Of a stretch of DNA of 64,000 bases, positions 28,337 through 62,241 are shown piece after piece (the first letter of the stretch is position 1; each line of letters begins with the position of its first letter). The DNA lies in IMG/VR virus record IMGVR_UViG_3300017917_002765, positions 1 through 64,000 of that record; one strand, given 5' to 3'. This stretch comes from a virus. The notes beneath the pieces are model-generated. The model made no database searches and had not been told where the DNA came from. It saw only the letters and a program-made list of their open reading frames with translations. The translations under genes were made by a program, and so were the position numbers.

Positions 28337-28344
28337 ATATTTTG

Positions 28345-28696: not shown

Positions 28697-28727
28697 CAAA
28701 GGTACTAAACTTTTTTCAATTTGTCAA
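28697..28727 (-). promoter_or_regulatory. Promoter TTGACA-N17-TACCTTTG
   Basis: Bacteroidota -7 element TAnnTTTG; the same architecture precedes all four leaders. Confidence 0.75.
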
Positions 28728-30416: not shown

Positions 30417-30423
30417 ATTATAG

Positions 30424-30508
30424 TGGGCAGGGGTGGACTCGAACCACCAATCAATTTAACCAATTGTAGACCCGATTAAACTGGCTTTTTCCCGCTAGCT
30501 ACCCGCCC
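30424..30508 (-). tRNA. tRNA-like RNA with a 12-bp extended anticodon arm
   Basis: Acceptor gggcggg/cctgccc; T arm ggtgg-ttcgagt-ccacc; arm cagtttaatcgg-gtctacaa-ttggttaaattg. Confidence 0.65.
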
Positions 30509-30699: not shown

Positions 30700-30702
30700 A
30701 AA

Positions 30703-30832
30703 AACCGAGGATAGCTTTTCGGAATCTAATATGGTTACCCATACTTAACACACCATTAGAGAGCTGAGCATTACTGCTTATCCTTAGTGTGTACCTCTAG
30801 AAGCGTCTCTCCACGCTTGCTATCCCACTGGT
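30703..30832 (-). ncRNA. Candidate structured RNA
   Basis: Closing ggatagc/gctatcc; internal hairpin aagcgt-ggagag-acgctt. Confidence 0.45.
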
Positions 30833-30847
30833 TCTTTCGGTCTAGGA

Positions 30848-31063
30848 TTAGTTAGTCGTTACTGAACGATTTCTACGAGTCCTTGTTGAAGCTTCAACAT
30901 CACTTCTAAGATAATCGTTAGGAAGTTCACCATTCCTTTTCATTGCGGCCAATACACCAGCAAATGTCATACGTGGCACACCAAGTCTTTCAGCCATATA
31001 AGCATTTGTACGCTTGTGGCCACATTGTAGGATGTACGCTCTGATTTGTTTTGAAGTTTTCAT
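30848..31063 (-). CDS. Small HTH-like protein
   Basis: NAYMAERLGVPRMT. Confidence 0.6.
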   Translation of the reverse strand: MKTSKQIRAYILQCGHKRTNAYMAERLGVPRMTFAGVLAAMKRNGELPNDYLRSDVEASTRTRRNRSVTTN

Positions 31064-32290: not shown

Positions 32291-32302
32291 ATATTTTAAA
32301 AC

Positions 32303-32334
32303 AAAAAAGCTTGGTCATTTCTGGCCAAGCTTTT
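32303..32334 (-). terminator. Attenuator terminator of the Phe/Glu/Asp/Ala tRNA operon
   Basis: AAAAGCTTGGCCA-GAAA-TGACCAAGCTTTTTT. Confidence 0.85.
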
Positions 32335-32357
32335 CATCTATTTATTAAACTTTGAGT

Positions 32358-32450
32358 TTACTTTTTAGACAATAGTTGACCACCTAGGCTTTTATCAGCC
32401 TCGGCTGCGAATTCAAACGCAAAATCAAATATGTTAGCAAAAGTTCTCAT
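32358..32450 (-). CDS. Leader peptide sensing F/A/D/E (30 aa, not in ORF track)
   Basis: MRTFANIFDFAFEFAAEADKSLGGQLLSKK; TGGTCAA can pair with TTGGCCA in the terminator. Confidence 0.85.
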   Translation of the reverse strand: MRTFANIFDFAFEFAAEADKSLGGQLLSKK

Positions 32451-32496
32451 TGTTTTTGTTTTTAATTAAATATCTACTTGTTTTAAAAAGTTATTG

Positions 32497-32527
32497 CAAA
32501 TGTACTAAGTATTTTTGAATTTGTCAA
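32497..32527 (-). promoter_or_regulatory. Promoter TTGACA-N17-TACATTTG
   Basis: Same architecture as the other leader promoters. Confidence 0.75.
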
Positions 32528-36395: not shown

Positions 36396-36455
36396 ATTAC
36401 GTTACAAAGGTACAAATAATTATCTTATTTTGCAAATCCTATGCAACTTTTTTTG

Positions 36456-36540
36456 TAGGTCCACCCAGATTCGAACTGGGATTATACTTCTCGTCTCCAC
36501 TTTGTAAGAGTGGGATGTTTAGCCATTACACCATGGACCT
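36456..36540 (-). tRNA. tRNA-Val(UAC), long variable region
   Basis: ccact-ctTACaa-agtgg; 16-nt variable segment. Confidence 0.85.
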
Positions 36541-36621: not shown

Positions 36622-36623
36622 AT

Positions 36624-36654
36624 AAAAAAAGCCTATCTTTTTAGGATAGGCTTT
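36624..36654 (-). terminator. Attenuator terminator of the Cys/Val/Leu tRNA operon
   Basis: AAAGCCTATC-loop-GATAGGCTTTTTTT. Confidence 0.85.
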
Positions 36655-36682
36655 CTAGTATTTTCAGTTTATGATTACTTAC

Positions 36683-36757
36683 TTAACAAGCAAAGCCCAC
36701 CCAGTCTGCTACTAGCAAACATAAGACAAGGACTAAATTTGTTAATGACGTTTTCAT
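36683..36757 (-). CDS. Leader peptide sensing L/V/C (24 aa, not in ORF track)
   Basis: MKTSLTNLVLVLCLLVADWVGFAC; GGGTGGGCTTT pairs with AAAGCCTATCC. Confidence 0.85.
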   Translation of the reverse strand: MKTSLTNLVLVLCLLVADWVGFAC

Positions 36758-36786
36758 TGTTTTTTGTCGTTTTTAATAAATATACA

Positions 36787-36817
36787 CAAAGGTACAAAAA
36801 GTTTTTCAATTTGTCAA
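36787..36817 (-). promoter_or_regulatory. Promoter TTGACA-N17-TACCTTTG
   Basis: Same architecture as the other leader promoters. Confidence 0.75.
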
Positions 36818-45734: not shown

Positions 45735-46691
45735 TTATAGCATTTTGTATAACGTTTTGTCGTCATAATTAAAGATGAAGTCTTGAACCGAAGCAATCTT
45801 ACCATCATTTAAACCGAAGTATAAACCAGTAAAATTCTTAACACCATACTTACCACACACATTAAATACAGCCTCAGCAAATCTCTTCTTCTCTTGTGGT
45901 GTGATGTTCTTTGGGCGTTTATCTTGTAACTCAACCCAAACATTATTCAACTTATCAACCAACACGTCATAGTTAACCTTTAACTTATACAACTCATCCT
46001 TACGGTCTGGGAATGTAGCAGCAAATTCTTCTATTTCGTTGGTTTTAACGATAGCTATGATGTTGTGTTCAGCTGTCTTTCCTTTCAAGTGGTGAACCGC
46101 AACATAAGCTGGGTTCTTTATCTTTACTCGGTTATGGTTAGCATCAACCACAACATAACCTTCATCGTGCCAAACCATGTTCTCAAACGTCTTCAATAGC
46201 GCACCAACGTTCTTGATGTTCAAGTCATATGCCTTAACTCGTGGAACACCCAAAGACTCAGCTATCGCTGTTAATTCGTCAAATGACACTTCTTCAAGTG
46301 TTTCAAGGTTACGAACTGTCAACAAAGACGCTGATGATTCACCGTGTGGTTTAACAACGATGTTATATGGGGTAGTCAATTCAAATACGTAAGTATAACC
46401 TTTAGTAAACTTAGATGCATCTAAACCATACTTATCCTTAACAGTTGTCCAGAATAGTTGGTTGAAGGTTGTACCCAACTTGTTGTTTACTTCACCTTCA
46501 CCTTCGGCAGTACCAGTGGTACCAGCATACCAAACGTTTTTATTCCAGTCGAAATAAACTTGTATACAAGAATTATGCACCAATATGTTATTAGCAAAAA
46601 AATTATTATGTGTTTTTGTTTGTATATCGTATCGTTTTGAATTGGAGTCAATCTTTTTAATTGATTTTATTTTAACCAGCTTATTTTCCAT
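45735..46691 (-). CDS. Split intein C-part (aa 1-40) fused to the C-terminal part of a Rnl1-type RNA ligase
   Basis: YDIQT..HNNFFANNILVHN|S; then FEL.TP.N.VV, EGYVV, RVKIKNP.Y. Confidence 0.9.
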   Translation of the reverse strand: MENKLVKIKSIKKIDSNSKRYDIQTKTHNNFFANNILVHNSCIQVYFDWNKNVWYAGTTGTAEGEGEVNNKLGTTFNQLFWTTVKDKYGLDASKFTKGYTYVFELTTPYNIVVKPHGESSASLLTVRNLETLEEVSFDELTAIAESLGVPRVKAYDLNIKNVGALLKTFENMVWHDEGYVVVDANHNRVKIKNPAYVAVHHLKGKTAEHNIIAIVKTNEIEEFAATFPDRKDELYKLKVNYDVLVDKLNNVWVELQDKRPKNITPQEKKRFAEAVFNVCGKYGVKNFTGLYFGLNDGKIASVQDFIFNYDDKTLYKML

Positions 46692-47628
46692 TTTTTATTT
46701 CATTTATTTTGTTCAAAATAATAATACCTAATTCAACATCAGTTAATTTGTTTATATCATTTTCCCACAAAGGTAAAACAAAATATCCGTGTTTCAAAGC
46801 ATTTAACCTTTTTTTTTCATCTTTTTTCCAAACATCCTTAGCTGTTATTTGTTTTTTACACCCTTTTTTATTTGGAAAAGGTATTATATCTGCTGGTTTA
46901 TATTTTTTTGGGTTGGCGTGCCAAAAATCACCATTAACTTCTATTATTAATTTAACTCCATCGATTTTATAATCATAAAATTTGTTTTTAATCTCAAATT
47001 GTGGTGTGTAAATAATACCTAAATTAAATAGAACATCACCTATTCTTTTTTCTATCGAACTTAATTTACCTCGTTGACTATTTAATTTCCTAACCCATTC
47101 AGCCTTACCAACATTGTCTAAGTAATCCCAACCACTAAGACGTTTTTTACCGTATATTTTTTCGTTTATCGTTGAAAATAACTTAATTGTTTCTGGGTCT
47201 TTAAAAACATTATCAACACCATAATGTTTAAGAAACGTTTCTTTTTTCTTTTCCTTTATTTTTAAACTACTAGATACATTATCTACACCATATTTTTCCT
47301 TACAAGTTTTTACATATTTATCCCTAACACTTTTTTGTTGTGCAATCTCTGATATTTTCTTTAGTTTGACCCCGTTCAATCTTAACAATAATGTTAGACT
47401 TTTATTAGGTATCTTATATTTATTAACCAAAGAAAATACAGAACCATCATTTTCATAATCTTTAATTATGTTTTTAATTTTATTTTCGTCAAGTTTAAAC
47501 CTTACTTTTAAAACAAAAAACTCTAACTCATCGTTAGAGTTGAAAGAATTAGAATGAGAGTTTTTAATATGTAATTTAAACATTTTACTATCAAACTCCG
47601 TATTACATTTATCACATTTAATCTTCAT
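46681..47628 (-). CDS. Free-standing Vsr/DUF559-like PD-(D/E)xK homing endonuclease
   Basis: KYGVDNV repeats; SSIE..YD..IEVNGDFWH..D..K...A...GY....WE. Confidence 0.85.
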   Translation of the reverse strand: MKIKCDKCNTEFDSKMFKLHIKNSHSNSFNSNDELEFFVLKVRFKLDENKIKNIIKDYENDGSVFSLVNKYKIPNKSLTLLLRLNGVKLKKISEIAQQKSVRDKYVKTCKEKYGVDNVSSSLKIKEKKKETFLKHYGVDNVFKDPETIKLFSTINEKIYGKKRLSGWDYLDNVGKAEWVRKLNSQRGKLSSIEKRIGDVLFNLGIIYTPQFEIKNKFYDYKIDGVKLIIEVNGDFWHANPKKYKPADIIPFPNKKGCKKQITAKDVWKKDEKKRLNALKHGYFVLPLWENDINKLTDVELGIIILNKINEIKNGK

Positions 47629-47685
47629 AATATTTATTTTATTATAAATATATGAAATCTTAGAAAAATTTGAATATCGTCAAAT

Positions 47686-48276
47686 TTATTTAGTAGTTAT
47701 TAAAACTTCATCACCCTCAGATAAATCCTCAACTTTACGATAACAAGATAACTTTGGTAACCAAACTCTGTGGTTTCCAGTTAATTTTATTGTTTCACCA
47801 TTTTCCATTTCTATTTCATACCAGTTGTTAATATTATTTTTAACAGAATGTGCCAGTATTTCATCAAAAACGATTTCGTTTTTTTCTATATCGTAAGATA
47901 ATACTTTACCAGAATATTTAGTATCACAAATTTCTTTAATACTTTTTTCACCAACTTCTGTTATTAGGATAGTTGTCTCATCAAGACAACCGTCCAATTT
48001 TTCAAGAACATGAGCAGTGTTCCAATCTATCTTGTGTGCGTTGCCTTCTTCTGAATTGAAAAATTTGGTGAACGCCAATGACATTACCTTCCAAGTATCT
48101 TTTTCAAGGACAAGTCCACGACATTCTTGAACTTCTGGCTTAGCCATAAGTGTTGGACTACATAATTGGTCATATTTCAACAATACTTTTGTATCATAAA
48201 CCCTAGTTTTAAGGTCAAATGCAAGTATGGTTTTAGCCAATCCGTTCTCTTTGATGTATTTTTGTATTGCTAACAT
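47686..48276 (-). CDS. Rnl1-type RNA ligase N-part (aa 1-96) fused to a split intein N-part (aa 97-196)
   Basis: ECRGLV, KFFN, EKLDG|CLDETT; intein block B LTGNHRVW; ends L.EGDEV. Confidence 0.9.
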   Translation of the reverse strand: MLAIQKYIKENGLAKTILAFDLKTRVYDTKVLLKYDQLCSPTLMAKPEVQECRGLVLEKDTWKVMSLAFTKFFNSEEGNAHKIDWNTAHVLEKLDGCLDETTILITEVGEKSIKEICDTKYSGKVLSYDIEKNEIVFDEILAHSVKNNINNWYEIEMENGETIKLTGNHRVWLPKLSCYRKVEDLSEGDEVLITTK

Positions 48277-48325
48277 AATTCGTATTTAGAATACAAATGT
48301 AATAATTTTTTTTGTAAATTACAAA

Positions 48326-48583
48326 CTATTGATTAAGAATAAATTTTCCAGTTGTTTTGTATATATATGTATCTCTTAGTGAATTACCAACTATTAATAT
48401 CGAAGTGTCTTTTTTATCTTCAGAAAGATACATATAGCCACCAATTGGTAATTCTAAATCAAAAAAACAAGATGAAAATTTTTTATCAGGACACTCTAAT
48501 TTATATTGAAAATTATTTTCATAGTGTGTAAGCGTACCAGCTTGACAAAAAAAACTAATAATTGTTGCAATAACTATTTTCAT
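48326..48583 (-). CDS. Hypothetical secreted protein
   Basis: 85 aa; hydrophobic N-terminus. Confidence 0.5.
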   Translation of the reverse strand: MKIVIATIISFFCQAGTLTHYENNFQYKLECPDKKFSSCFFDLELPIGGYMYLSEDKKDTSILIVGNSLRDTYIYKTTGKFILNQ

Positions 48584-48597
48584 GGTTAAAAATTTAG

Positions 48598-48670
48598 TAG
48601 TCCCAGAGGGATTCGAACCCCCATAAAGAGCTTAGAAGGCTCTTGTCCTAATCCATTGAACGATGGGACC
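48598..48670 (-). tRNA. tRNA-Arg(UCU)
   Basis: agagc-ctTCTaa-gctct; near copy of 54201..54271. Confidence 0.9.
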
Positions 48671-48678
48671 GTAAAAAA

Positions 48679-49023
48679 TTAACCTAATGGTGCTTCACCT
48701 TTATCTCCTCGAAGCTTGTTTATCTGTTTAATGATTTCATCATATGAAACACTATTAGCTTTTTTCTTTAAATATTCGGTTATATCACTTTTGTTCTCTT
48801 CTAACCCATCTAAAAGTTTTTTTGCAGTGTACATACTTGTTAATTGACCTAACTCATATGTTTCATCTTCAGTCATAATTGTACCAGCTAGCAAAATCAT
48901 AAAATTACCAGATTGGCTGATACAAAAATCTTTTCTTTCCATTCCTTCATCAACCAAAACCTTACCCATTTCTAGAAACATAGCACTAAGCTCTAAACGT
49001 CTATTTATATTTTCTTTTTCCAT
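48679..49023 (-). CDS. Hypothetical protein
   Basis: 114 aa ORF. Confidence 0.65.
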   Translation of the reverse strand: MEKENINRRLELSAMFLEMGKVLVDEGMERKDFCISQSGNFMILLAGTIMTEDETYELGQLTSMYTAKKLLDGLEENKSDITEYLKKKANSVSYDEIIKQINKLRGDKGEAPLG

Positions 49024-49060
49024 TAAGCAAATATACTACTATTTTTAATAATATGCAAGT

Positions 49061-49990
49061 TTACTTCACAATTTCTGTTACAAAACCAGTAATAAAAAAT
49101 GGTTTAACATCTTGCCATTTGGTGATATCATTCGACAACACTGGTTTACCGCCATCTGGGTTTACAGCAATCGTAACGTGAGGAATAGCGTTTTTAGATG
49201 GATACCCTTCAACTTGTACTGCCATAGCCATATCAGACAGACCAACTTTTGTCACCTTCAAAATGACTTCCTTGCCAATGTCAGTCTTATCCTTTAACTC
49301 ACCCATTGTTATTGTCATGTGGTGGGCATAAGTCTTCCAACCATCTGGAATTTCCAATACAAATCGCTCAAGCAATTTATTGTGTGAAGCCTTATCCAGA
49401 AGAACACAAGAATACAGTACGTTTGATTTATTATACATGTCTTTAGAATCCAAAACACTTTTAAGGGTAAGAGGTCCTTGTGCTGTGTGACTAGCAATCA
49501 TAGCTTCAATCCTTTCTAACGGAACGCCATGAGTGTTTCTAGCAGCCAATTGTGTAGCCTCAAGTCCAGCGGTACCAACATCAACAAATTTTATGTTGTT
49601 ATCAGCAAAACCCATTTCAAGAGCCGCTACAACATATGCTTTTGGTTCGTTTTGCTTAATGTTTGTGTTGTCAACAATAACTGGTGTAATCCCAGCTTTC
49701 ATCGAAGTAATTGCATCTTTTAAATTTTGTGAGTGAACCTTGCTTAGAGCACTAAAATCACCAGTAGCAATCATCTTAGCAAAAAACTCAAGATAATCAC
49801 CAGATTTCTCAATAACATCGTCTGTTGAATGAATTTTACCTTGACCTACAAGTGATTTAGCCTTGGTTGATTTTCCAGCTCCAGGTATCCCACGCATAAC
49901 AATAAGCTCTTGGTTAGGTCTGGTTACAGACACGCCCAATGAGTTTTTTTCTGAACCCTCACGCAGTATTTCTTTGATTTTTTCTTTCAT
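49061..49990 (-). CDS. Polynucleotide kinase plus cyclic phosphodiesterase (Trl1-like healing enzyme)
   Basis: RGIPGAGKST, STDD, VDNTN, RNTHGVP; C-terminal 2H motifs HMTI and HVTI. Confidence 0.85.
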   Translation of the reverse strand: MKEKIKEILREGSEKNSLGVSVTRPNQELIVMRGIPGAGKSTKAKSLVGQGKIHSTDDVIEKSGDYLEFFAKMIATGDFSALSKVHSQNLKDAITSMKAGITPVIVDNTNIKQNEPKAYVVAALEMGFADNNIKFVDVGTAGLEATQLAARNTHGVPLERIEAMIASHTAQGPLTLKSVLDSKDMYNKSNVLYSCVLLDKASHNKLLERFVLEIPDGWKTYAHHMTITMGELKDKTDIGKEVILKVTKVGLSDMAMAVQVEGYPSKNAIPHVTIAVNPDGGKPVLSNDITKWQDVKPFFITGFVTEIVK

Positions 49991-50036
49991 ATTTGCAAAG
50001 GTACAAAAAATTTATGGGGTTTCCAAATTAATTTTA

Positions 50037-50354
50037 CTATTTCTTTCGATTCAAAAATATATAAGAAACCAAAGTGATTAAGCCAATTACAATAAAAGAT
50101 TTAGCAAAAAATAACGGAATGTCATATAATTCATGAAGCATCCAAAAAATATTCATCATAACCCAAGAAGAGAAAATTCCAGTCGAGGAAATGAATTTTT
50201 TTGTTTTGAATAATATGTATACTGTTAATAAAAAAGTCGGAATCACCATTATGGTTGCCAATAATTTCCATTTTAAAAGCCAACAAATATCTTTTAACAA
50301 CCAGAAACTAAAGTGAAGAAAATCTAGCTTATTTTCCTCTTGAACCATTTTCAA
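50037..50354 (-). CDS. Membrane protein
   Basis: H..FWLLKDICW; several TM segments. Confidence 0.65.
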   Translation of the reverse strand: MKMVQEENKLDFLHFSFWLLKDICWLLKWKLLATIMVIPTFLLTVYILFKTKKFISSTGIFSSWVMMNIFWMLHELYDIPLFFAKSFIVIGLITLVSYIFLNRKK

Positions 50355-50721
50355 TTATTTCCATTTTTTCACCATTTCTATCTATTAATATGTATTCACA
50401 CTTTATTAAACCAAACTTATCTAAATGGTCTAACACTTCATTGGCCGTAAAGCATGAGCAAGAGTAAATATCAAATTGAAACATTGGAGGAGAGTATTTT
50501 TCCCAAATGTGTATTGAGGCATGTGAAGTGGCTAACGTTACCGTTCCAGTTAAACCCTCATTTCCTTCCTCAGAAACATAAACTGAGGTTGGCCCAGCCA
50601 CAACAACCATTCTAACTTTTTCAACTAACTCTGTAAACCATTTATTTAAAACATCAACTTCTGATGGCGGATTTTTAACGTATCCTTTAACGATTAAGTG
50701 AAGGTGATTTGGAACAAACAT
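50329..50721 (-). CDS. S-adenosylmethionine decarboxylase proenzyme-like
   Basis: G.T....LATSHASIHIW..D.YSC. Confidence 0.8.
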   Translation of the reverse strand: MFVPNHLHLIVKGYVKNPPSEVDVLNKWFTELVEKVRMVVVAGPTSVYVSEEGNEGLTGTVTLATSHASIHIWEKYSPPMFQFDIYSCSCFTANEVLDHLDKFGLIKCEYILIDRNGEKMEIIENGSRGK

Positions 50722-50766
50722 TCTGAATTTTACAAATAAATATGTTGTTTATTAGAAAAATAATTA

Positions 50767-51366
50767 TTAATTATCTTCAACACTTACAAGTTCTATTATG
50801 TTAGGATTGTAAACAATAATGTGGTTACCCTCACCTTGATGTCTTGGTACGATTATACCATCTATACCCATCTTAACCATATTTCTAACATATTCAACTG
50901 GTTCGTATCGATAAAATTCAATCCATATTTGTTGAGCCAAATCTTTTTCAGTATCATTATAATCTATTGAACTATCTACAGCCATTGTTAGCCCTTTATA
51001 TGGGTTTATATCAAAATTTTGAGCAGTAGCTTTCCAATCTGGTGCCATACGCATCACTTTGGTTGTGAATGCTTTCCATTTCGATGGAACCAATGGTGTC
51101 ATATCCATCAACTTTCTTGGGGAGAGTTTTACAGTGTATATTTTATTGCCGTAAACTTCAGCTTCTTCTTTAACCGTTGTAAAATAAATTCCAGGTCCTT
51201 CTTGGTCCATAGCTTCAGCTCCACCTACAAACTCATCTGAAAAACGTTTAATTTCAGCTTTGGTTCCGTGGAATACAGTATAAGAGCCACCTTTGGTGAT
51301 TTCATGAATAAGTGATTCTCGAAGTCTTTTAGTTATTAAGTCTTTCATTTTAATATACGTCATCAC
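50767..51366 (-). CDS. ADP-ribosyltransferase-fold (ART-PolyVal-like) protein
   Basis: VFHGT, GPGIYFT....A..YG, GIDGII; LRESL N-terminus. Confidence 0.65.
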   Translation of the reverse strand: MMTYIKMKDLITKRLRESLIHEITKGGSYTVFHGTKAEIKRFSDEFVGGAEAMDQEGPGIYFTTVKEEAEVYGNKIYTVKLSPRKLMDMTPLVPSKWKAFTTKVMRMAPDWKATAQNFDINPYKGLTMAVDSSIDYNDTEKDLAQQIWIEFYRYEPVEYVRNMVKMGIDGIIVPRHQGEGNHIIVYNPNIIELVSVEDN

Positions 51367-52516
51367 TAATATTATTGTATTCTTTTTTTTCCTCTGGTGT
51401 TAATTCTCTATTTATGTTGTTCAATAGCTTTTCTTTAATATCATCACTTAACCTCCAAGATATACTAATAGCGTACTCCAAGAAAGTCATATCATCAATT
51501 TTGTTTTTTGGGTTATATATAATGTTTAAATACCCATCTTCAATCATTTGTTCTAATTCACCTCTTTCTGGAAAATTTTCTAATGTTTCATTCTGAATCC
51601 TTCTCTGTATTGATGAATAGTATAATTGTTTTATTTTGTTATCGAGTTTATCCAAATGAAATCTATTAAAATAAAAATTACTTCTGTTTAACACTAATAA
51701 TTTCAAATTATTCGGTAATGATAAAAATTCATCAACAGATATTTTTTCACCTCTTAATATACTAGTTTCAATGTCTTTATAATCTAAACCTATAACACTT
51801 TTTTTAATATGACAAAACGTATCTGGATTTTTAACTGGAATTGGTTTATCAGAAACTTTTGACATGTCATATATAACAGAGCCATGGATAGTATTATCAA
51901 ACATTGATATTCCACTTACATTAACACCGTTAAATCCATTGTATTCCATAATTCTAGTTGACATAGAAGCTAAGTTGCTTTTATCCTTCATGTCTTTAGC
52001 CGCTAATTTAACCATTTCAATATAATCACGGTAATTTGGAATTTTTAAACCAAGTTTGTTTATATTGTGTTTAATTTTTAAATAAAGGTTACTAAAATAT
52101 TTGTCCATTTCAAACTTAGAATCATGAATTGAAACAACAAGGTGAAAGCTTTGGTTAATTAATTTTAATGTTTCATATAACATCTCACCATGTTCATTAG
52201 ATTTGACTCTGAATAAATTTTTGTATATATCAAAATCAACACGATATGCTTTTTGGAATTCGGTTAATTCTTTTTTATGAACATCAACATTACCATATTC
52301 TTTATCAAACTCCCTAAAATCCCTATGTTTACAATTATAAGTAGAAAAATAAACACCAGAACCAAAATGACCTGTATGCCTACCACTCATCATAACTATA
52401 TTATCAGAACCATATGGTTTTATGTTCTTTAAATCAGAACCTAATTGGCCAATATGATAATTAAACTCGGCTTCATTTAATTCTTTCCTTAAAAGTTGTT
52501 TGATAAAATCTTTCAT
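51350..52516 (-). CDS. Putative ART-fold protein
   Basis: YH..., FGSGVYFS, GFNGV; IKQLLR N-terminus. Confidence 0.5.
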   Translation of the reverse strand: MKDFIKQLLRKELNEAEFNYHIGQLGSDLKNIKPYGSDNIVMMSGRHTGHFGSGVYFSTYNCKHRDFREFDKEYGNVDVHKKELTEFQKAYRVDFDIYKNLFRVKSNEHGEMLYETLKLINQSFHLVVSIHDSKFEMDKYFSNLYLKIKHNINKLGLKIPNYRDYIEMVKLAAKDMKDKSNLASMSTRIMEYNGFNGVNVSGISMFDNTIHGSVIYDMSKVSDKPIPVKNPDTFCHIKKSVIGLDYKDIETSILRGEKISVDEFLSLPNNLKLLVLNRSNFYFNRFHLDKLDNKIKQLYYSSIQRRIQNETLENFPERGELEQMIEDGYLNIIYNPKNKIDDMTFLEYAISISWRLSDDIKEKLLNNINRELTPEEKKEYNNISDDVY

Positions 52517-54042
52517 TAGATTAAATTAAGTTTCCTTCTAAGCCTTTCTTTTAACTCTTCTTTAGATAACTCATTAAATTCTTTTTCAAGACCTAATACT
52601 TTTGCAATATCGTTTGGTGTTACACGTGAACCATGAGAATGGCTTCCCATTCCTTCATCAATAGTCTTCATTTTCTGATTAACATAATCAATAAGATAAT
52701 TTGTAACCTTTGAAACCTCCTCAAATACCTTAATCATATTTTTTTCATCAGCACCCCATAAGACGGTATAATTTAAGGATGTTGTTTTTAAATCAAAACC
52801 AAAAGCATACATAAACATCCAAGCACTTAATTCTGCTTGTTGTTCAACAACATCTCTAGAATTTTTTCCAATGAAGAAAGAACCAGAAGCTCCACCTTTG
52901 GAAGACAGGTATGACTGATGTAACAATTCATGAGTTATTTCGTGAGCAAGTGTTTTGGTTAAACCAACATCATTCCCTTCATTTTTCAATATCTTTATCA
53001 ATCCATTTGCACTAACACCTCTAGAACCACCTAAGTCATCAACCAATTCTGTTTTAATACCATTATCATTACAAAATTCTAATAAGGATTTATATATTGG
53101 TCTTACATCATCAGAAATCATATTTTCTTCAAACCATTTAATGTTTTTTGAAGCTTCTTCTGCGGACTTAATATAATCTGTTTTCCCTTCTATTTGTGTT
53201 GTATCAGAAACATCATAAACCGCAACTAACTTAAATTTATTAGCCTGTACGCTACCTTTTGTTATTGCGTCCAACTTAAATTTTTCATTTGGCGTTAAAT
53301 CGTCCCTTTTTATTTTTCCTACCTTTTTAAAAAAGTCTTGTTTTTCTTTTTCAACTTGTTCTTTTGATTTATATAGTTTCTTACCTTCAGGTGCCCAAAT
53401 TGCAATAGGTTTTGCATTAGGATTAACATTTCTATTATATTTGTCTAACCAATCTAGTTTCCCATAAACCTTTTTGGCATTTGGTTTTTGTAAATAAATC
53501 AAAAGCGTATTAGCTAATGAGAATCCTCTTCCTTGTGCGGCTCTAATATCAATTAGCTTTCTCATTATATCCTTAAATTGCTCATCATCTTTGATATTTA
53601 CAAGCATATTTCTAAAGTTATTTAACTTCGTTTTAATCGCTTCTTCATCTTCCTTGGTGAAATTTAATTCTGGGATTTGAGTTAAGTCTTCTGTTTCAAT
53701 TGTTTGAATTAATCTGTCAATGTCGGTGATTAATTTTTTAGCATCTTCACCACTAACACTTAAATAATCGTTTAGATGGTTTATTGCGGATTTTATATCA
53801 TCTATAGTAGTTTTGTTTTCAAACCAAAAATAAGTTTTAATTAATTTATTATATTTTCCGCCATTATTACCAAGAATAGATTTTCCAGCATCACTAAATA
53901 TTAAAGCATTTTCTTCTTCTGTACTAGCTTTTAACATAATAATTGGAATTTCTCTTCCGTCTTTTGTTTTAAATAAGCTTTTTACTAATTTAAAATCTTC
54001 AAAAATTAACTTTTTCATATTTTTTTTTATAATAAATATCAC
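52516..54042 (-). CDS. ArdC-like ssDNA-binding domain plus zincin (HExxH) protein
   Basis: FS..NTLLI..Q.PNA, AIWAP, VYDVSDT, AHEITHELLH, EQQAE. Confidence 0.8.
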   Translation of the reverse strand: MIFIIKKNMKKLIFEDFKLVKSLFKTKDGREIPIIMLKASTEEENALIFSDAGKSILGNNGGKYNKLIKTYFWFENKTTIDDIKSAINHLNDYLSVSGEDAKKLITDIDRLIQTIETEDLTQIPELNFTKEDEEAIKTKLNNFRNMLVNIKDDEQFKDIMRKLIDIRAAQGRGFSLANTLLIYLQKPNAKKVYGKLDWLDKYNRNVNPNAKPIAIWAPEGKKLYKSKEQVEKEKQDFFKKVGKIKRDDLTPNEKFKLDAITKGSVQANKFKLVAVYDVSDTTQIEGKTDYIKSAEEASKNIKWFEENMISDDVRPIYKSLLEFCNDNGIKTELVDDLGGSRGVSANGLIKILKNEGNDVGLTKTLAHEITHELLHQSYLSSKGGASGSFFIGKNSRDVVEQQAELSAWMFMYAFGFDLKTTSLNYTVLWGADEKNMIKVFEEVSKVTNYLIDYVNQKMKTIDEGMGSHSHGSRVTPNDIAKVLGLEKEFNELSKEELKERLRRKLNLI

Positions 54043-54105
54043 AATTTATTTAGTTAATTCATTTATGTATGCAATTAAATGTGGAAACATATTGGTTATT
54101 TAAAG

Positions 54106-54194
54106 CGGAGAATTGGTTAATCGAAAACCATGCGGTTTTTGGCCGCACCCATTGTTTAGCAAACAAGTCTGGGACCCTGCCCAGTTAATTCTCC
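54106..54194 (-). tRNA. tRNA-Ser(GCU)
   Basis: ttgt-ttGCTaa-acaa; long variable arm; G73. Confidence 0.88.
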
Positions 54195-54200
54195 ATATTG

Positions 54201-54271
54201 TAGTCCCAGAGGGACTCGAACCCCCATAAAGAGCTTAGAAGGCTCTTGTCCTTCCGTTGAACGATGGGACT
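54201..54271 (-). tRNA. tRNA-Arg(UCU)
   Basis: agagc-ctTCTaa-gctct. Confidence 0.9.
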
Positions 54272-54278
54272 ATTATAG

Positions 54279-54358
54279 TACAGACGGAGGGACTCGAACC
54301 CCCATTTACAACTCCATTTACGGTTACTAAGTTCGTAGCTTAGCTCGGTTACGTCTGC
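54279..54358 (-). tRNA. Atypical tRNA-Arg(ACG) lacking a normal D arm
   Basis: Acceptor gcagacg/cgtctgt; only 8 nt before ctaag-ctACGaa-cttag; long variable region. Confidence 0.7.
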
Positions 54359-54363
54359 ATTTG

Positions 54364-54433
54364 TTGCGTGGAACGGAGCCGAACCGTCTTACTCTGCCTT
54401 ATGAGAGCTGAGCCTTTTCCAATAAGCCACGCA
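54364..54433 (-). tRNA. Atypical tRNA-Met(CAU)
   Basis: Acceptor tgcgtgg/ccacgca; loop ctCATaa; irregular D and anticodon stems. Confidence 0.65.
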
Positions 54434-54438
54434 ATGTG

Positions 54439-54509
54439 CTCAGATGTAGGGAATCGAACCCTATTCCTACGAGTTAACAGCTCGTTGCTCGCCATTGAGC
54501 TTCATCTGA
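54439..54509 (-). tRNA. tRNA-Asn(GUU)
   Basis: acgag-ctGTTaa-ctcgt; G73. Confidence 0.9.
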
Positions 54510-54515
54510 ATGTTG

Positions 54516-54600
54516 CGGATTGGATAGGATTCGAACCTATGTGAACCTTACGGCCTTCGTGTTAACAGCACGCTGCTCTGACCAACTGAGCTACCAATCC
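54516..54600 (-). tRNA. tRNA-Asn(GUU), long variable arm
   Basis: cgtg-ctGTTaa-cacg; ggcc-gtaa-ggtt arm. Confidence 0.85.
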
Positions 54601-54608
54601 ATATTTTG

Positions 54609-54684
54609 TCTTGAGGGTGGGACTCGAACCCACACGTGCGAAGATATAAGCTTCCCAGTCTGACCAGTTGACTATTACCTCAAG
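54609..54684 (-). tRNA. tRNA-Ile(UAU)
   Basis: gaag-ctTATat-cttc; A73. Confidence 0.8.
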
Positions 54685-54693
54685 AATTTAAAG

Positions 54694-54777
54694 TTGTGAG
54701 GGTGGGAGTCGAACCCACCTATAGAAATTAATCTCCAGTGTATCAGACTGGTGCCCAAACCGCTAGACCACCTCACA
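54694..54777 (-). tRNA. tRNA-Ile(GAU), long variable region
   Basis: ccagt-ctGATac-actgg. Confidence 0.85.
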
Positions 54778-54890
54778 ATAATTTATTTTAATTTCCTAAA
54801 CCATAAACCGCCCCAGTTTATTATTATATTCACTAGCATCCATCTCTGTGGAGACCAAACAATTGTTTGGTGACGGTTAAAGTTTAAAAG

Positions 54891-54963
54891 GGTGCTATAG
54901 GAGTTTCGAAATCCCGACCTCTGGTTCCACAAACCAGCGCTCTGCCTCTGAGCTAATAGCACC
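54891..54963 (-). tRNA. tRNA-His(GUG)
   Basis: G-1:C73; ctggt-ttGTGga-accag. Confidence 0.9.
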
Positions 54964-55054
54964 ATGTTTGAAAGTGTAATTTACTGCACTTTTCATGTTA
55001 AATAAGCTTTTTATATCAGTTATTTAGTCTGATAGTGTAATTTATTACACTTTG

Positions 55055-55128
55055 GGTGTAGGACGATAGTCGAACTCGCAACTACAAGGCTCACAACCTA
55101 GCGTTATACCGTTAAATCTACCTACACC
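55055..55128 (-). tRNA. tRNA-His(GUG), atypical T arm
   Basis: G-1:C73; loop ttGTGag. Confidence 0.75.
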
Positions 55129-55205
55129 ATATAAGACCACCCCGTAAGTGGTCAGGACAAACACGTCTTTGTCTGGACAGCGATATTTCCCTTTGGGAAT
55201 ACTAG

Positions 55206-55292
55206 AGGAAGGTGGAGGACCCGACCCCCTGACGGCTCATCACCGCCACCCTAATTTTCAAGACTAGTTTTGCTCCATGCAAGGCACCTTCC
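55206..55292 (-). tRNA. tRNA-Ser(UGA), atypical T loop
   Basis: ctagt-ctTGAaa-attag; long variable arm; T loop gtcgggt. Confidence 0.75.
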
Positions 55293-55297
55293 ATTAG

Positions 55298-55380
55298 CAC
55301 ACTCGGTAGAAGTCGAATCTACAACCATTTAATCCTAAGAACAGATTTGGAGTCTGTTGGTCACGCCCATGAGCGAGTGT
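55298..55380 (-). tRNA. Atypical tRNA-Trp(CCA)
   Basis: aacaga-ctCCAaa-tctgtt; small D loop; long variable region. Confidence 0.7.
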
Positions 55381-55385
55381 ATATG

Positions 55386-55456
55386 CACACCTGCTTCGAC
55401 TTGAACGAAGAACGTCCGTTTTGGAGACGGAAATTTTACCATTAAACTACAGATGT
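55386..55456 (-). tRNA. tRNA-Trp(CCA)
   Basis: tccgt-ctCCAaa-acgga; G73. Confidence 0.88.
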
Positions 55457-55517
55457 ATAATAACCAATATGTCAAATAACGTCTGACCAATATTTTATTT
55501 GGTGGTCAACCAAAAAT

Positions 55518-55553
55518 AAAAAACCCGACCTAGATTTTTATCTGAGTCGGGTT
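55518..55553 (-). terminator. Attenuator terminator of the Trp/Ser/His/Ile/Asn/Met/Arg tRNA operon
   Basis: AACCCGACTCAGAT-loop-ATCTAGGTCGGGTTTTTT. Confidence 0.85.
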
Positions 55554-55576
55554 CTTCTTTTTTATTTGTTTGTTTC

Positions 55577-55678
55577 TTAAAAATCACATAAGAAACTTAC
55601 AGACATAGCCGACTCAAATGGATTGCTATTGCGTCTCCACATGCTAATCGAATTAATATGTATGTTTATGTTTCTCAT
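55577..55678 (-). CDS. Leader peptide sensing R/N/I/H/S/M/W (33 aa, not in ORF track)
   Basis: MRNINIHINSISMWRRNSNPFESAMSVSFLCDF; TGAGTCGG is perfectly complementary to CCGACTCA in the terminator. Confidence 0.87.
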   Translation of the reverse strand: MRNINIHINSISMWRRNSNPFESAMSVSFLCDF

Positions 55679-55742
55679 TGTTTTTGTTTTGTGGGTTTCC
55701 CCTGTTTTTTATTAAATATGTGCTTTTTCTTAAAAGTTAATG

Positions 55743-55773
55743 CAAATGTACTAACTATTTTTCAATTTGTCAA
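55743..55773 (-). promoter_or_regulatory. Promoter TTGACA-N17-TACATTTG
   Basis: Same architecture as the other leader promoters. Confidence 0.75.
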
Positions 55774-55791
55774 GTTTTTTGCAAAATATTT

Positions 55792-57072
55792 TTATGAAAC
55801 GTCAAATTCGTCCAAATATACTGTAACTTCTGGGTGATTAGTTTCAAGATAAGAAACAACTTGCCTAGGGTCCTTGGTTAATGGAATATCCGTTCCGAAT
55901 TTTTGATTGAATTCTTCTACTGTACGTATTTTTTGTTGTTCGCCATTTTTATAAATGATATATATACCATATATGGTATTAGTTACGGCACCCATATATT
56001 CTGGTCTAGAAACCAATATTCTATCTACTCCATCGAATAATGATTGTTCTTCCTCATATGGGTTTATACCATACTGTACTTCTCTAGAAGCTTTTTCATA
56101 GTCTTCACCATCATACTCATTAATTTGATTTTTAATCCAATAGTTCAATCCTTTCCAATATATTGCATCAAAACTATCTTTATGCTCTTCACCATCAAAA
56201 ACTACTGTAACATAAATTTTATTCCACTTATGTTTTGAAATTAAATCTTCAACTATTGACATGGTATCGTCAAAATCAAAATTAGACTCAATAGTGTCTA
56301 TTTCATAATCAATTGAACCATCTGGACCATTATGATAATGTTTATCTTCTATTTTTGTCATATCATTATCATAATCTAAGGTTACTAACATATCTGAAAC
56401 ACCAGTTGATGTTCCTTCATCCATTTTCATCATTGAAGTCTCATCTATATCATATTTAACACCATCATCATATACTTCACCTAAACTATTCGGGTCTAAC
56501 TTGGTTAAATACATATTTAATTCATAGGTACCAGAATCCATTCTATATATTTGTATTGCTAAAAATCTATTTTTGGTTGGCTGACCTTTGTGGTTAAGGT
56601 GTATATTATCTTTTTTATTTTCACCATATTTAACACCACCAAACGTAAATTTATTAAAACCATTTTCAGGGATTTCAAAATAATTGTTTTCAACATATTT
56701 TTGAGCTTCATCTAAAGCTGATGCTAATGTTTTATGATATACCTCGTAATCTTTTGATTTTAAAACAGAACCAACACTTCTTGATTCTTCATCAATACCT
56801 AAACCAAAACTAGCTACTGTTGTGTCAGCATCATAAAAATCAGAAACAATGTATTTATCAGAGCCAATTTGGTTTATGTGTTTAGCAACACCACCTTCTT
56901 CGTCAGAAATTCTTTTGGCTTCAGCTTTTGCTTCTTCAAAAGACATTCCATAGCTTTCATCTAATCTTTTTATTTTGTTAAAATTTTTTGAAAATGATTC
57001 AACAATTGCTTTTTCTCTATCAGCCAATATAGCTTTCTTTTTAGCTTCAGTTAAAAATTCTTTCTTTTTCAT
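55792..57072 (-). CDS. Hypothetical modular phage protein
   Basis: 426 aa; IQIYRMDSGTYELNMY motif; upstream GATATTTAT. Confidence 0.7.
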   Translation of the reverse strand: MKKKEFLTEAKKKAILADREKAIVESFSKNFNKIKRLDESYGMSFEEAKAEAKRISDEEGGVAKHINQIGSDKYIVSDFYDADTTVASFGLGIDEESRSVGSVLKSKDYEVYHKTLASALDEAQKYVENNYFEIPENGFNKFTFGGVKYGENKKDNIHLNHKGQPTKNRFLAIQIYRMDSGTYELNMYLTKLDPNSLGEVYDDGVKYDIDETSMMKMDEGTSTGVSDMLVTLDYDNDMTKIEDKHYHNGPDGSIDYEIDTIESNFDFDDTMSIVEDLISKHKWNKIYVTVVFDGEEHKDSFDAIYWKGLNYWIKNQINEYDGEDYEKASREVQYGINPYEEEQSLFDGVDRILVSRPEYMGAVTNTIYGIYIIYKNGEQQKIRTVEEFNQKFGTDIPLTKDPRQVVSYLETNHPEVTVYLDEFDVS

Positions 57073-57213
57073 AGCAGTATTTTAAGATAAATATCTAAAA
57101 CCCCAATAAAAGTTATGTGTTCTTTCTTTTCACAAAACTTCTTTTAACATTAACTGTCTTTCTTTTGTTTGTGCTGCCTTCACGAACAGTTATTGTTCTT
57201 TTGTGTGTTGCCA

Positions 57214-60737: not shown

Positions 60738-60861
60738 AATAAACAAGTGGAACAAGATAAAAAAGCAAACCCCACCGAAGTGGGGCTTGTATTAGTTCAG
60801 AATAGGTTTTGTTAACTGTTTTGCTTAATAGTTTTTTTTAATTGCTGAATCTATTCTTTAG

Positions 60862-60930
60862 AACCCCTGATAGGATTTGAACCTATATCTCCCCCTAATA
60901 TTGGGGCTCTAGCAATTGAGCTACAGAGGT
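60862..60930 (-). tRNA. tRNA-like RNA with a shortened anticodon arm (loop aaTATta)
   Basis: Intact acceptor, D and T arms; anticodon stem only 3-4 bp; no U33. Confidence 0.55.
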
Positions 60931-60974
60931 ATAATAAAGAAAAACCTGTTTTTCAGGAATTACATTCTTTTTAG

Positions 60975-61046
60975 TAGCGGGGGATGGAATCGAACCACCG
61001 ACCTCTAGGTTATGAGCCTAGCGAGCTACCACTGCTCCACCCCGCA
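60975..61046 (-). tRNA. Initiator-type tRNA-Met(CAU)
   Basis: 1:72 mismatch; gcggggtggagcag 5' end; ctagg-ctCATaa-cctag. Confidence 0.88.
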
Positions 61047-61052
61047 ATATTG

Positions 61053-61121
61053 TAGAAGAGAAAGGCCTTGAACCTTTATTTCCGCCCCCATGGGCGTTGT
61101 CTTTCCTTAGACGACTCCTCT
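61053..61121 (-). tRNA. tRNA-like RNA with an aberrant anticodon loop (Pro-like)
   Basis: Acceptor agaggag/ctcttct; cgcc-catggg-ggcg; T arm aaagg-ttcaagg-ccttt. Confidence 0.5.
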
Positions 61122-61130
61122 ATGTATCCC

Positions 61131-61308
61131 AAGATAGTTGTTCGTATTTATTTTACATGACTCCCGTTTACATGGTGATAATTTATTACTCGACTCCACA
61201 TCGAGGCAGATTTGGTTACTATGGTGCCGCTCTTTCGAGTTAGACCATAATGAGAGTCTAGCTTACTCCCTTTTTCCACTGTAGTTTTGTTTTTGCAGAA
61301 CCTATCTT
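61131..61308 (-). ncRNA. Candidate structured RNA
   Basis: Closing aagatag/ctatctt; internal tatgg/ccata and ctc-gaaa-gag hairpins. Confidence 0.45.
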
Positions 61309-61354
61309 TTTTGGATATTTTAGATTAACAAAGAACGTTGTGTTAATATATATG

Positions 61355-61385
61355 CAAAGGTACGAAGAAAAATTGTATTTGTCAA
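61355..61385 (-). promoter_or_regulatory. Promoter TTGACA-N17-TACCTTTG for the fMet cluster
   Basis: Same motif, followed by boxA-like GTTCTTTG. Confidence 0.7.
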
Positions 61386-61408
61386 GTTTTTTTAAAAAAA
61401 AATTTTTG

Positions 61409-61678
61409 TTATTGATTTTTTTCTATTTTAAAATTCCTAACCAATGGTTTGTTTGTCAATGGATTTACAATTACAAAAATTGATTGTTTTTTGTCAATTT
61501 GATGAACAAGATTAATAACTTCAAAATATTGGTCATCTAACCATATGAATTCATCTTTTCTAGGTATAATTTCAAAAGGAAGGTTTCTTTTTAGAATTTC
61601 CCATTTACTATTTAGTAGTGTTACAGTATATTTTTTTCTAAACATACTATAATATAATACAAGATTTGGTAAAATCAA
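61409..61678 (-). CDS. Hypothetical protein (likely start MFRKK)
   Basis: PR..E.I..YFEV..VH. Confidence 0.6.
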   Translation of the reverse strand: MILPNLVLYYSMFRKKYTVTLLNSKWEILKRNLPFEIIPRKDEFIWLDDQYFEVINLVHQIDKKQSIFVIVNPLTNKPLVRNFKIEKNQ

Positions 61679-61720
61679 GTATTTATAGGAAACAATAACA
61701 AATATAAAAATTCAAAGAAC

Positions 61721-61810
61721 ATGTACACAGTAACTAACGGTTGCGGTTGTGGTAAACCAAAACAAACAACAGTTGTTAAACCAGTTGCACCTCCAAAACC
61801 TAACTCATGA
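61721..61810 (+). CDS. 29 aa peptide with a GCGCG motif (not in ORF track)
   Basis: MYTVTNGCGCGKPKQTTVVKPVAPPKPNS; upstream GTATTTATA; downstream terminator. Confidence 0.45.
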   Translation: MYTVTNGCGCGKPKQTTVVKPVAPPKPNS

Positions 61811-61826
61811 TTTTAGAGGTTTATTA

Positions 61827-61847
61827 AAGGGGCGAAAGCCCCTTTTT
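61827..61847. terminator. Bidirectional intrinsic terminator
   Basis: aaaggggc-gaaa-gccccttttt. Confidence 0.8.
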
Positions 61848-61885
61848 GTTTTGACTAACCTTAGATAAGCAACAAAAGTCAAGTG

Positions 61886-62241
61886 TGGAGCATATGGGAG
61901 TCGAACCCATGTCTTGAATACTCTTCAAAAGCTTTCTACATGTTTATCACAGAATTTTCTAATTCTTCGAAATAGGTCGATGTGTCAACGATTAACGACC
62001 AAAACCGAATGGACTACCATTATGTCGTGGAACATACCACGATGAAGCGATTTATCGCTATCAGCTATATTAGGCTACAGCAAGCTCTCCAGCGAAACTG
62101 CAAGCAGCTTCGTCAAGGAAATTTTCAGATACAACAAAATCGTTGCCATTTAAAAAGTTCAATAGCCAGTTTAAAGTGCTTCCATCTAGCACTACATGCT
62201 TACTAATTACGACTATATTCAGTCAATACCTTTAATGCCCC
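61886..62241 (-). ncRNA. ssrA: tmRNA
   Basis: 5' GGGGCAT pairs with 3' ATGCTCC-A with G3:U70; T loop ttcgact; tag ORF 62147..62070 GNDFVVSENFLDEAACSFAGELAVA*. Confidence 0.92.

Follow-up and report, generated by a model that had tools for sequence, protein, structure and literature searches.

The stretch of DNA analysed here (the window) is 64,000 nucleotides (nt) long and covers positions 1-64,000 of the IMG/VR virus record IMGVR_UViG_3300017917_002765, a single contig of 136,575 bp with 31% G+C. All of its tRNA genes and its transfer-messenger RNA (tmRNA) gene lie on the minus strand. Our subject is a compact element on that strand, in which a promoter, a short open reading frame (ORF) and a transcription terminator precede an array of 13 tRNA-like genes (54105-55456). 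We describe the element, its three paralogs in the same genome and its counterparts in uncultured relatives, which together suggest a leader-peptide attenuator that gates the tRNA genes.

The promoter (55743-55773) consists of TTGACA at 55773-55768, a spacer of 17 nt and TACATTTG at 55750-55743. It is the best sigma-70-like match within 48000-56000, and it also fits TTGACA-17-TACATT. Its TAnnTTTG box is of what we take to be the Bacteroidota type. The 5′ untranslated leader that follows (55679-55742) is A-rich, has no Shine-Dalgarno sequence and holds a conserved ATATTTAWT..AAAAAC block. The leader ORF (55577-55678) has 33 codons and a TAA stop, giving the peptide MRNINIHINSISMWRRNSNPFESAMSVSFLCDF*. 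Codons 1-19 (55622-55678), here termed the regulatory codons, all fall within the amino acid set W/S/H/I/N/M/R.

Four regions of the leader RNA take part in the predicted pairings. Region 1 (55634-55665) is a strand within the regulatory codons that pairs with region 2 in minimum free energy (MFE) folds, forming a predicted protector helix. Region 2 (55608-55620; nt 59-71 of the leader, codons 20-24) is CAUUUGAGUCGGC, the 5′ strand of the putative antiterminator. Inside the antiterminator loop lies a small hairpin, GUUUCUUA..UAAGAAAC (55572-55596, about -7 kcal/mol), which contains the leader stop codon. Regions 3 and 4 form the terminator (55512-55553, -17.3 kcal/mol), with AACCCGACUCAGAU-AAAA-AUCUAGGUCGGGUU at 55553-55522 followed by T6-A-T5. 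This terminator was identified with RNAfold; a consensus terminator scan did not include it among its calls because its inner stem has no G-C pair. The first gene of the array, tRNA-Trp, begins about 55 nt past the terminator, and directly before it is a conserved post-terminator hairpin, TTGACC..GGTCA, with a GTTATTTGACATATTG motif (55461-55511).

The array was assembled from ARAGORN and Rfam calls at default to relaxed thresholds. Its order is Trp, a gene with a CCA anticodon and a long variable arm, Ser-UGA, His, His, Ile-GAU, Ile-UAU, Asn, Asn, Met-CAU, an Arg-ACG-like gene, Arg-UCU and Ser-GCU. Default ARAGORN calls seven of the 13 (Trp, both His, Ile-GAU, both Asn and Arg-UCU), and the gene at 54279-54358 is an eighth that reaches the Rfam gathering score. 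The Arg-ACG assignment of the latter (54358-54278) is a manual reading, with a CTACGAA loop and the closing stem CTAAG/CTTAG; ARAGORN folds it otherwise, as ‘Leu-tag’, and its D arm is reduced. The CCA-anticodon gene (55382-55297), Ser-UGA (55292-55205), Met-CAU (54434-54363) and Ser-GCU (54194-54105) appear at relaxed thresholds, and Ile-UAU (54684-54608) scores 28.6 bits in Rfam against a cut-off of 29. The long-arm CCA gene has counterparts in relatives. Many class I tRNAs of the window (Asn, Ile, Val, Thr and Lys; 54105-55456, 27203-28417 and 36455-36540) have variable arms of 10-18 nt. The specificities of the array are Trp, Ser, His, Ile, Asn, Met and Arg, and codons 1-19 of the leader specify no other amino acid.

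Leader types and tRNA arrays in the genome and its relatives

The 136,575-bp genome has exactly four copies of the motif TTGACAAAT[TC][GC]AAAAA, all of them ahead of a leader and a tRNA array. These promoter copies align and are near-invariant, and behind each come a short ORF, a terminator and an array, all on the minus strand. The locus described above is unit 4. Unit 1 (28474-28727) has a leader beginning MKTTTTYTGKQYPQGKQG.. with its ATG at 28641, a terminator at 28515-28484 and an array at 28417-27203 that reads Pro, Gln, ‘?’, Tyr, Thr, two Gly and three Lys; the gene at 28172-28259 has no clear anticodon. Unit 2 (32300-32527) has the leader MRTFANIFDFAFEFAAEAD.., which includes ..FDFAFEFAAEAD.., with its ATG at 32450, a terminator at 32332-32307 and an array of Phe, Glu, Asp and Ala at 32290-31874. 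Unit 3 (36623-36817) has the leader MKTSLTNLVLVLCLLV.., which includes ..LVLVLCLLV.., with its ATG at 36757, a terminator at 36653-36629 and an array of Cys, Val and three Leu at 36621-36011. The post-terminator hairpin of unit 1 (28478-28425) reads GGTCA..TGACC, a compensatory swap relative to unit 4. A GTTATTTGA motif stands before the first tRNA in units 4 and 1, and also precedes tRNA-Trp in one relative (L145). Hairpin and motif could be a processing or an anti-termination signal.

The four arrays split the 20 amino acids without overlap as 6+4+3+7, and leader types are named by these sets: T1 (P/Q/Y/T/G/K), T2 (F/E/D/A), T3 (C/V/L) and T4 (W/S/H/I/N/M/R, the present leader). Codons 2-19 of each leader were scored for membership in the set of its own array. 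The scores are 17/18 for T1, 14/18 for T2, 10/18 for T3 and 18/18 for T4, with binomial P values under the phage's own amino acid usage of 5e-8, 9e-7, 9e-5 and about 6e-10, respectively. Counted against the three other sets, the same codons score 0-3. As a comparison set we took the 1105 ATG-initiated ORFs of 20-60 codons in all six frames of the whole genome. The T1, T2 and T4 leaders are each the single top outlier for their own set, and T4 scores 18 where the next best ORF has 14. The T3 leader, at 10, is tied with four other ORFs and one ORF reaches 11. Chance origin of the codon/tRNA match is excluded. The first-pass annotation of this DNA, which proposed an attenuator here and described codons 1-19 as confined to the seven specificities of the 13 downstream tRNAs, is thus borne out on the codon composition; its reading of the element as an attenuator is supported by an anatomy and a codon/tRNA match that recur in all four units and in a clade of relatives.

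Cultured relatives were not found: blastn of 54000-57100 against cultured phages matched tRNA pieces only, and tblastn with the leader peptide and with the kinase-CPD protein encoded downstream gave no cultured relatives. Relatives were therefore sought among uncultured IMG/VR contigs. These were fetched by the promoter motif alone, so that the retrieval is unbiased as to the leader. The first promoter pattern yielded 112 loci, only 5 of them relevant, and looser or other patterns worked better. The retrieved contigs hold all four leader types, each ahead of the matching array. Among 29 distinct leader peptides from this set, 280 of the 290 codons at positions 8-17 belong to the leader's own set (T1 70/70, T2 29/30, T3 81/90, T4 100/100). 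The ORF is open in all 29 (10 of them distinct T4 leaders), as it is in the further T4 leaders described below. Four of 13 regulatory columns of the T4 leaders vary in amino acid, and every alternative is a member of the set (I/M, H/I/N, N/S and M/N/S), which argues for selection on set membership rather than on a particular peptide. Gaps in the alignments of the regulatory parts of T1 and T3 span 3 or 6 columns, one of them adding an own-set Leu codon in L141, and the frame is therefore kept there.

Two extensions of the search gave the same picture. Scanning by conserved leader DNA recovered T4 leaders that have other promoter variants ahead of them, from contigs as long as 368 kb, and together with the promoter set gave 34 distinct T4 leader/terminator combinations. 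Two complete phage genomes of 360 kb were searched upstream of their tRNA arrays for a small ORF with a terminator, and then for small ORFs rich in own-set codons; in both, all four leader types are present and stand ahead of their matching arrays. Most T4 relatives also carry a conserved ORF of about 60 amino acids (consensus roughly M.ELVRKLG...DFD..V..Y.K.A...GYHGELRF) between the T4 terminator and the first tRNA, for example L089 (2348-2545), L145, L160 and L025. It has no Pfam match and is absent from the window. From its position it would be co-regulated with the array.

The first-pass annotation further proposed that individual tRNA species are sensed, not just amino acids. The codon-anticodon correspondences on which it relied are all present: the leader uses both boxes for Arg (AGA, CGC) and for Ser (TCG, AGC) and the two codon types for Ile (ATA, ATT), and the array supplies Arg-UCU and Arg-ACG, Ser-UGA and Ser-GCU, and Ile-UAU and Ile-GAU. 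Both forms of each (AGA with CGY, TCG with AGY, ATA with ATT) are kept in 10/10 distinct promoter-retrieved T4 leaders, and the synonymous changes that do occur (CGC/CGT, AGC/AGT) remain inside the decoding box of one tRNA. Some of these codons are uncommon in the phage's genes, where TCG, CGC and AGC make up 3.2%, 2.0% and 7.4% of the codons for their amino acids. Over the four leaders together, the regulatory codons are less frequent in genome usage than expected (mean ln relative frequency of -1.33, expected -0.85; 0 of 20,000 draws as low). This pattern would fit isoacceptor sensing or a tuning of sensitivity.

Predicted alternative pairings of the leader RNA

The 8-bp complement reported in the first-pass annotation is correct in sequence and position: TGAGTCGG (55616-55609) exactly complements CCGACTCA (55550-55543), and the pairing reaches 11 bp with one G.U. 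Region 2 pairs with the terminator arm at -16.3 kcal/mol, against a mean of -6.7 for dinucleotide-shuffled ORFs, none of 200 being as good. The terminator that this pairing would disrupt is a constant feature of the relatives. Hairpin and T-run are found in 30/30 complete promoter-retrieved instances, with the 5′ arm starting 21-29 nt past the leader stop; with the T4 leaders fetched by leader DNA included, this distance is 21-36 nt.

Cognate pairing was compared with pairing to the arms of other leaders. Antiterminator strands pair with their own terminator arms at -8 to -17.6 kcal/mol, and with arms of other types at means of -5.6 to -11.2; non-cognate pairs as good as the cognate one number 52/602. 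The 34 T4 combinations show strand and arm changing together in many classes, including GAGUCGG/CCGACUC, GGUCAAGG/CCUUGACC, GUCGGGU/ACCCGAC, GAAUUCGG/CCGAAUUC, GAGACG/CGUCUC and AGCAGGU/ACCUGAC. Across these classes the N-terminal regulatory part of the peptide is constant, and the C-terminal part is rewritten along with strand and arm. MAFFT placed two T4 subfamilies one column out of register, and duplex cross-controls were therefore used in place of pair counting. In these controls dissimilar non-cognate arms were as good in 68 of 849 cases, and 15 of the 34 leaders had none better. For T3 the terminator helix has 98.9% of cells paired and four pairs with compensatory changes, values reached by 0-2 of 500 shuffles.

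Folds of the transcript before the terminator is made show what region 2 would otherwise do. The antiterminator strand pairs with codons about 6-15 in the MFE folds of 25 of 26 T1, T3 and T4 instances, the exception being L136. For the present unit the predicted protector joins the antiterminator strand to codons 10-14. A protector hairpin closed by ATAGC/GCTAT, as had been suggested from the sequence alone, occurs in no predicted fold.

Nascent transcripts were then folded with the terminator 3′ arm not yet made and the ribosome placed at varied positions. For all four units the antiterminator strand holds the terminator 5′ arm while the A site is at or before about codon 16-19, and the arm is released when the ribosome is beyond. 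For the present unit, region 2 is predicted to be free only with the ribosome stalled at about codon 17 or earlier, and the effective stall window of this leader would be about codons 5-17. With the ribosome placed at the stop codon, the predicted protector and the terminator both form.

Interpretation and competing explanations

Taking together the anatomy, the codon/tRNA match and its statistics, the conservation in relatives and the co-variation of antiterminator and terminator, we consider it very probable that this element is a ribosome-mediated (leader-peptide) transcription attenuator gating a phage tRNA operon. The proposed course of events is as follows. Transcription would start at the promoter, and the 33-codon leader would be translated while it is being synthesized. 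When matching aminoacyl-tRNA is scarce, slow reading of ATA/ATT, CAT, AAY, TCG/AGC, Met, Trp and AGA/CGC would stall the ribosome in region 1. The stall would free region 2 (55620-55608) to pair with the terminator 5′ arm before the 3′ arm is made, and RNA polymerase would read through into the 13 tRNA genes. When decoding is fast, the ribosome would reach the stop codon, regions 1 and 2 would re-pair behind it, the terminator would form and transcription would end. Since the operon encodes the very tRNAs by which its test codons are decoded, the circuit would be a negative, self-limiting feedback on decoding capacity, and the four units would jointly cover all 20 amino acids. Three parts of this scheme are inferred: ribosomes read the leader, the host couples transcription to translation, and the helices compete kinetically. 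The scarcity itself might stem from poor host supply, host shut-off or a tRNA-cleaving defence.

Several observations weigh against this interpretation. Equilibrium folds of the full transcript give the terminator a probability of about 1.0 at any ribosome position, both for this unit and for unit 2. These folds never flip, so that any switch has to be a kinetic one, as it is in classical attenuators (trp). The stop codons of this unit and of unit 1 are some 30 nt downstream of region 2, and a ribosome at the stop leaves region 2 uncovered, so that termination in the unstalled state relies on the predicted re-pairing of regions 1 and 2. The T2 antiterminator is weak, and for one of its leaders (L131) 18 of 26 non-cognate arms pair equally well. 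Antiterminator co-variation in T3 is no better than in shuffles (86.9% against 84.5% paired, with 41 of 500 shuffles reaching it). At the level of the peptide, codons 4-7 of T1 and T3 leaders are frequently out of set. Fine-scale co-evolution of leader and array does not hold in some relatives, whose arrays include extra tRNAs that no leader codon matches: His in L161 (T1), Met in L159 (T2), Thr in L169, L172 and L173, Tyr in L184, L185, L187 and L189, and Pro and Gly in L198. Five of the 13 tRNA-like genes in the present array are sub-threshold or atypical and are seen only with relaxed thresholds. The pattern used to scan by leader DNA fixes ATACATAT, TCGATT and TGGAGACG, and the extended T4 set is therefore uninformative on the conservation of those codons. 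For the promoter-retrieved leaders, the same nucleotides take part in the predicted protector helix and the leaders share ancestry, so that selection on codons is inseparable from constraint on RNA structure. The isoacceptor proposal is thus partly supported, by the retention of both boxes, the in-box synonymous changes and the rare codons; codon-level conservation in homologous leaders, which had been put forward as its check, could equally reflect that structural constraint. Finally, the sequencing runs that match 54100-55800 are DNA, mostly freshwater metagenomes, and no RNA run is among them.

Other explanations share parts of this evidence. An attenuator might report amino acid supply, that is tRNA charging, rather than the amount or integrity of tRNA, and so tie tRNA output to host nutrition. 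Attenuators of the trp/his type read aminoacyl-tRNA and cannot distinguish uncharged from absent tRNA, and the mixed sets of the present leaders resemble the multivalent ilv and thr leaders. Extra tRNA would not relieve amino acid starvation, however, which leaves the feedback without a purpose. Each set corresponds one-to-one to the tRNAs of its array and does not follow biosynthetic families; for Arg, Ser, Leu and Ile the leaders draw on both codon boxes, in agreement with the isoacceptors encoded; and tRNA-repair genes lie downstream in the same orientation. We therefore regard sensing of charging as improbable. A partial terminator that is always active and reduces tRNA output unconditionally would agree with equilibrium folds that always favour the terminator, but it leaves unexplained both the codon/tRNA match and the presence, immediately after the regulatory codons, of an antiterminator strand that co-varies. 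It seems to us extremely unlikely.

The short ORFs might alternatively encode functional micropeptides, the terminator just ending a small transcript and the tRNAs being transcribed from elsewhere. The peptides are indeed conserved, and that of T3 (LVLVLCLLV) resembles a membrane segment. Yet substitutions at their variable positions never leave the set defined by the downstream tRNAs, their C-terminal halves are exchanged as a whole together with the terminator sequence, and each of the four arrays has a different peptide that matches it. About 2-10 nt separate the end of the T-run from the first tRNA in units 2 and 3, so that there is no room for another promoter. This makes a micropeptide function very unlikely. 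Just as little can be said for an RNA-only or protein-bound riboregulator, such as a T-box-like direct tRNA sensor, in which the ORF would be incidental. It would account for the alternative helices and for the overlap of conserved codons with the predicted protector helix. Against it, the frame is open in the 29 promoter-retrieved leaders and in the further T4 leaders, the T1 and T3 gaps are of 3 or 6 columns, the stop-to-terminator distance is held to 21-36 nt, and what is conserved is membership in the amino acid set, not nucleotide sequence. No Rfam match beyond tRNA and tmRNA reaches the gathering score in the window, and 54050-55800 has no T-box or leader match at E<=1.

A broader form of the attenuator reading is possible, if doubtful. 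It would have a clade of large phages carry a four-channel sensor of decoding capacity for all 20 amino acids, probably resolving single isoacceptors and serving as a counter-defence. Where host tRNAs are depleted or cut, by anticodon nucleases or host shut-off, the stall would open the matching array, and maybe the repair genes, and the array would close again on recovery.

Gene neighbourhood and comparison with known systems

Downstream of array 4 and in the same orientation is a group of genes at 45735-49990 (minus strand). It contains a kinase-CPD protein (49061-49990; Pfam AAA_33 and tRNA_lig_CPD), an ORF of 109 amino acids, a single tRNA-Arg-UCU gene (48597-48670) and an Rnl1-type RNA ligase matched in two pieces (48273-47983 and 46535-45990). 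Kinase-CPD protein, tRNA-Arg and ligase together look like a tRNA-repair set. The roughly 1.4 kb between the ligase pieces holds an endonuclease-like ORF and a sub-threshold intein-splicing match, and the ligase gene may carry an intein or other insertion. One relative (L089/G001, a contig of 21,951 bp) keeps the T4-type promoter, leader and terminator and a 65-amino-acid ORF; its tRNA array is absent, and the leader stands directly ahead of the kinase-CPD and RNA-ligase genes. A T4-type leader that drives tRNA-repair genes was considered for this contig and rejected, as tblastn puts the same genes after array 4 in the genome of the window and in relative G004. The contig is either a natural deletion variant or an assembly artefact without the array.

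Elsewhere in the window, on the minus strand, is a full-length RNB-family exoribonuclease of the RNase II/R type with CSD and S1 domains (11967-13949). Its nearest chromosomal relatives are from Flavobacteriaceae and other Bacteroidota, at 43-50% identity; with the promoter type, assumed above to be that of Bacteroidota, this suggests a host in that phylum. A cluster at 60861-62241 (minus strand) contains a tmRNA (tag GNDFVVSENFLDEAACSFAGELAVA) and tRNA-Met, flanked by two tRNA-like genes (60861-60930 and 61052-61121) with no usable anticodon. It has the same promoter type (about 61386) and no leader ORF. ARAGORN assigns stop-codon anticodons to a gene of the window at 30423-30508 (TTA, ambiguous, alternatively ATC) and to two in G004 (CTA and TTA; 5408-5481 and 10006-10096), which could be suppressor tRNAs. 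Between a 71-amino-acid ORF and tRNA-Phe (30699) lies a segment of about 150 nt (30700-30860, minus strand) that is richer in G+C and structured-looking, with no leader ORF and no Rfam match at the gathering score.

In attenuators of enterobacteria (ilvGMEDA for Leu/Val/Ile, thr for Thr/Ile, and trp, his, leu and pheA), as is proposed here, a short leader that includes a series of regulatory codons is translated, and the RNA follows a four-region plan (protector 1:2, antiterminator 2:3, terminator 3:4) with a T-run, the protector of the present unit being a predicted one. They read aminoacyl-tRNA supply through ribosome stalling, as this unit would, with several amino acids per leader in some cases. 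Unlike them, the present element is phage-borne and the genes it would regulate are tRNA genes, so that the sensor would read its own products; as many as seven amino acids are combined in one leader, four units tile all 20, and some 30 nt separate region 2 from the stop codon. The pheM leader of the Escherichia coli pheST operon, which encodes an aminoacyl-tRNA synthetase, also places a component of the translation apparatus under attenuation. It senses one amino acid (Phe) and is cellular with a protein product, whereas the present unit is viral with tRNA products.

T-box riboswitches similarly terminate conditionally in a leader in response to the state of a specific tRNA. Without any translation, they make direct contact with uncharged tRNA by means of a single specifier codon and the T-box sequence, whereas here it is the ORF that is conserved. 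The T-box family (RF00230) has no match at the gathering score in the window or at E<=1 in 54050-55800. Searched with all leader families of Rfam release 15 (His, Leu, Thr, Trp and others), the window gives matches at the gathering score to tRNA and tmRNA only; weak matches at E 0.8-1 on the opposite strand of 54050-55800 were dismissed as chance.

Phage tRNA sets, as in phages T4 and T5 and a vibriophage, replace host tRNAs that are lost to shut-off or anticodon nucleases. Those phages likewise have tRNA arrays near tRNA-repair enzymes, represented here by the kinase-CPD protein and the Rnl1-type ligase. We know of no account of these sets, within the literature searched, that describes a sensing or feedback element before the arrays. 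Leader-peptide attenuation is, to our knowledge, known only for amino acid biosynthesis and synthetase operons, and no published description of leader-peptide control of tRNA genes was found in full-text searches of a library that covers few of the subscription journals. That the regulated genes are 13 tRNA-like genes rather than biosynthesis or synthetase genes is a point of novelty and no defect of the mechanism; the evidence supports a known mechanism, attenuation, in a new place, before tRNA genes. If this is right, the virus measures the decoding of particular codons and tops up the corresponding tRNAs on demand. It would shed light on the regulation of phage tRNA arrays and on the reason for their sorting by amino acid, in a system conserved from 136-kb to 368-kb phages. 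It would also provide a natural multi-input sensor of tRNA availability, reusable as a reporter for tRNA-targeting immunity or antibiotics.

The nearest published system, judged from the portions of the two articles available, is the trn operon of Anabaena sp. PCC 7120, a long tRNA array that is silent and is induced under translational stress (PMC8421152, PMC10272220). The terms ‘leader peptide’ and ‘attenuat’ have no occurrences in those portions, which describe control by TrcR, a protein repressor of the ribbon-helix-helix family (PMC8421152, PMC10272220). As far as these sources go, both systems are supplementary tRNA arrays, expressed on demand when translation is impaired in Anabaena and probably so in the phage, one bacterial and controlled by a repressor, the other borne by a phage and placed behind a leader ORF and terminator.

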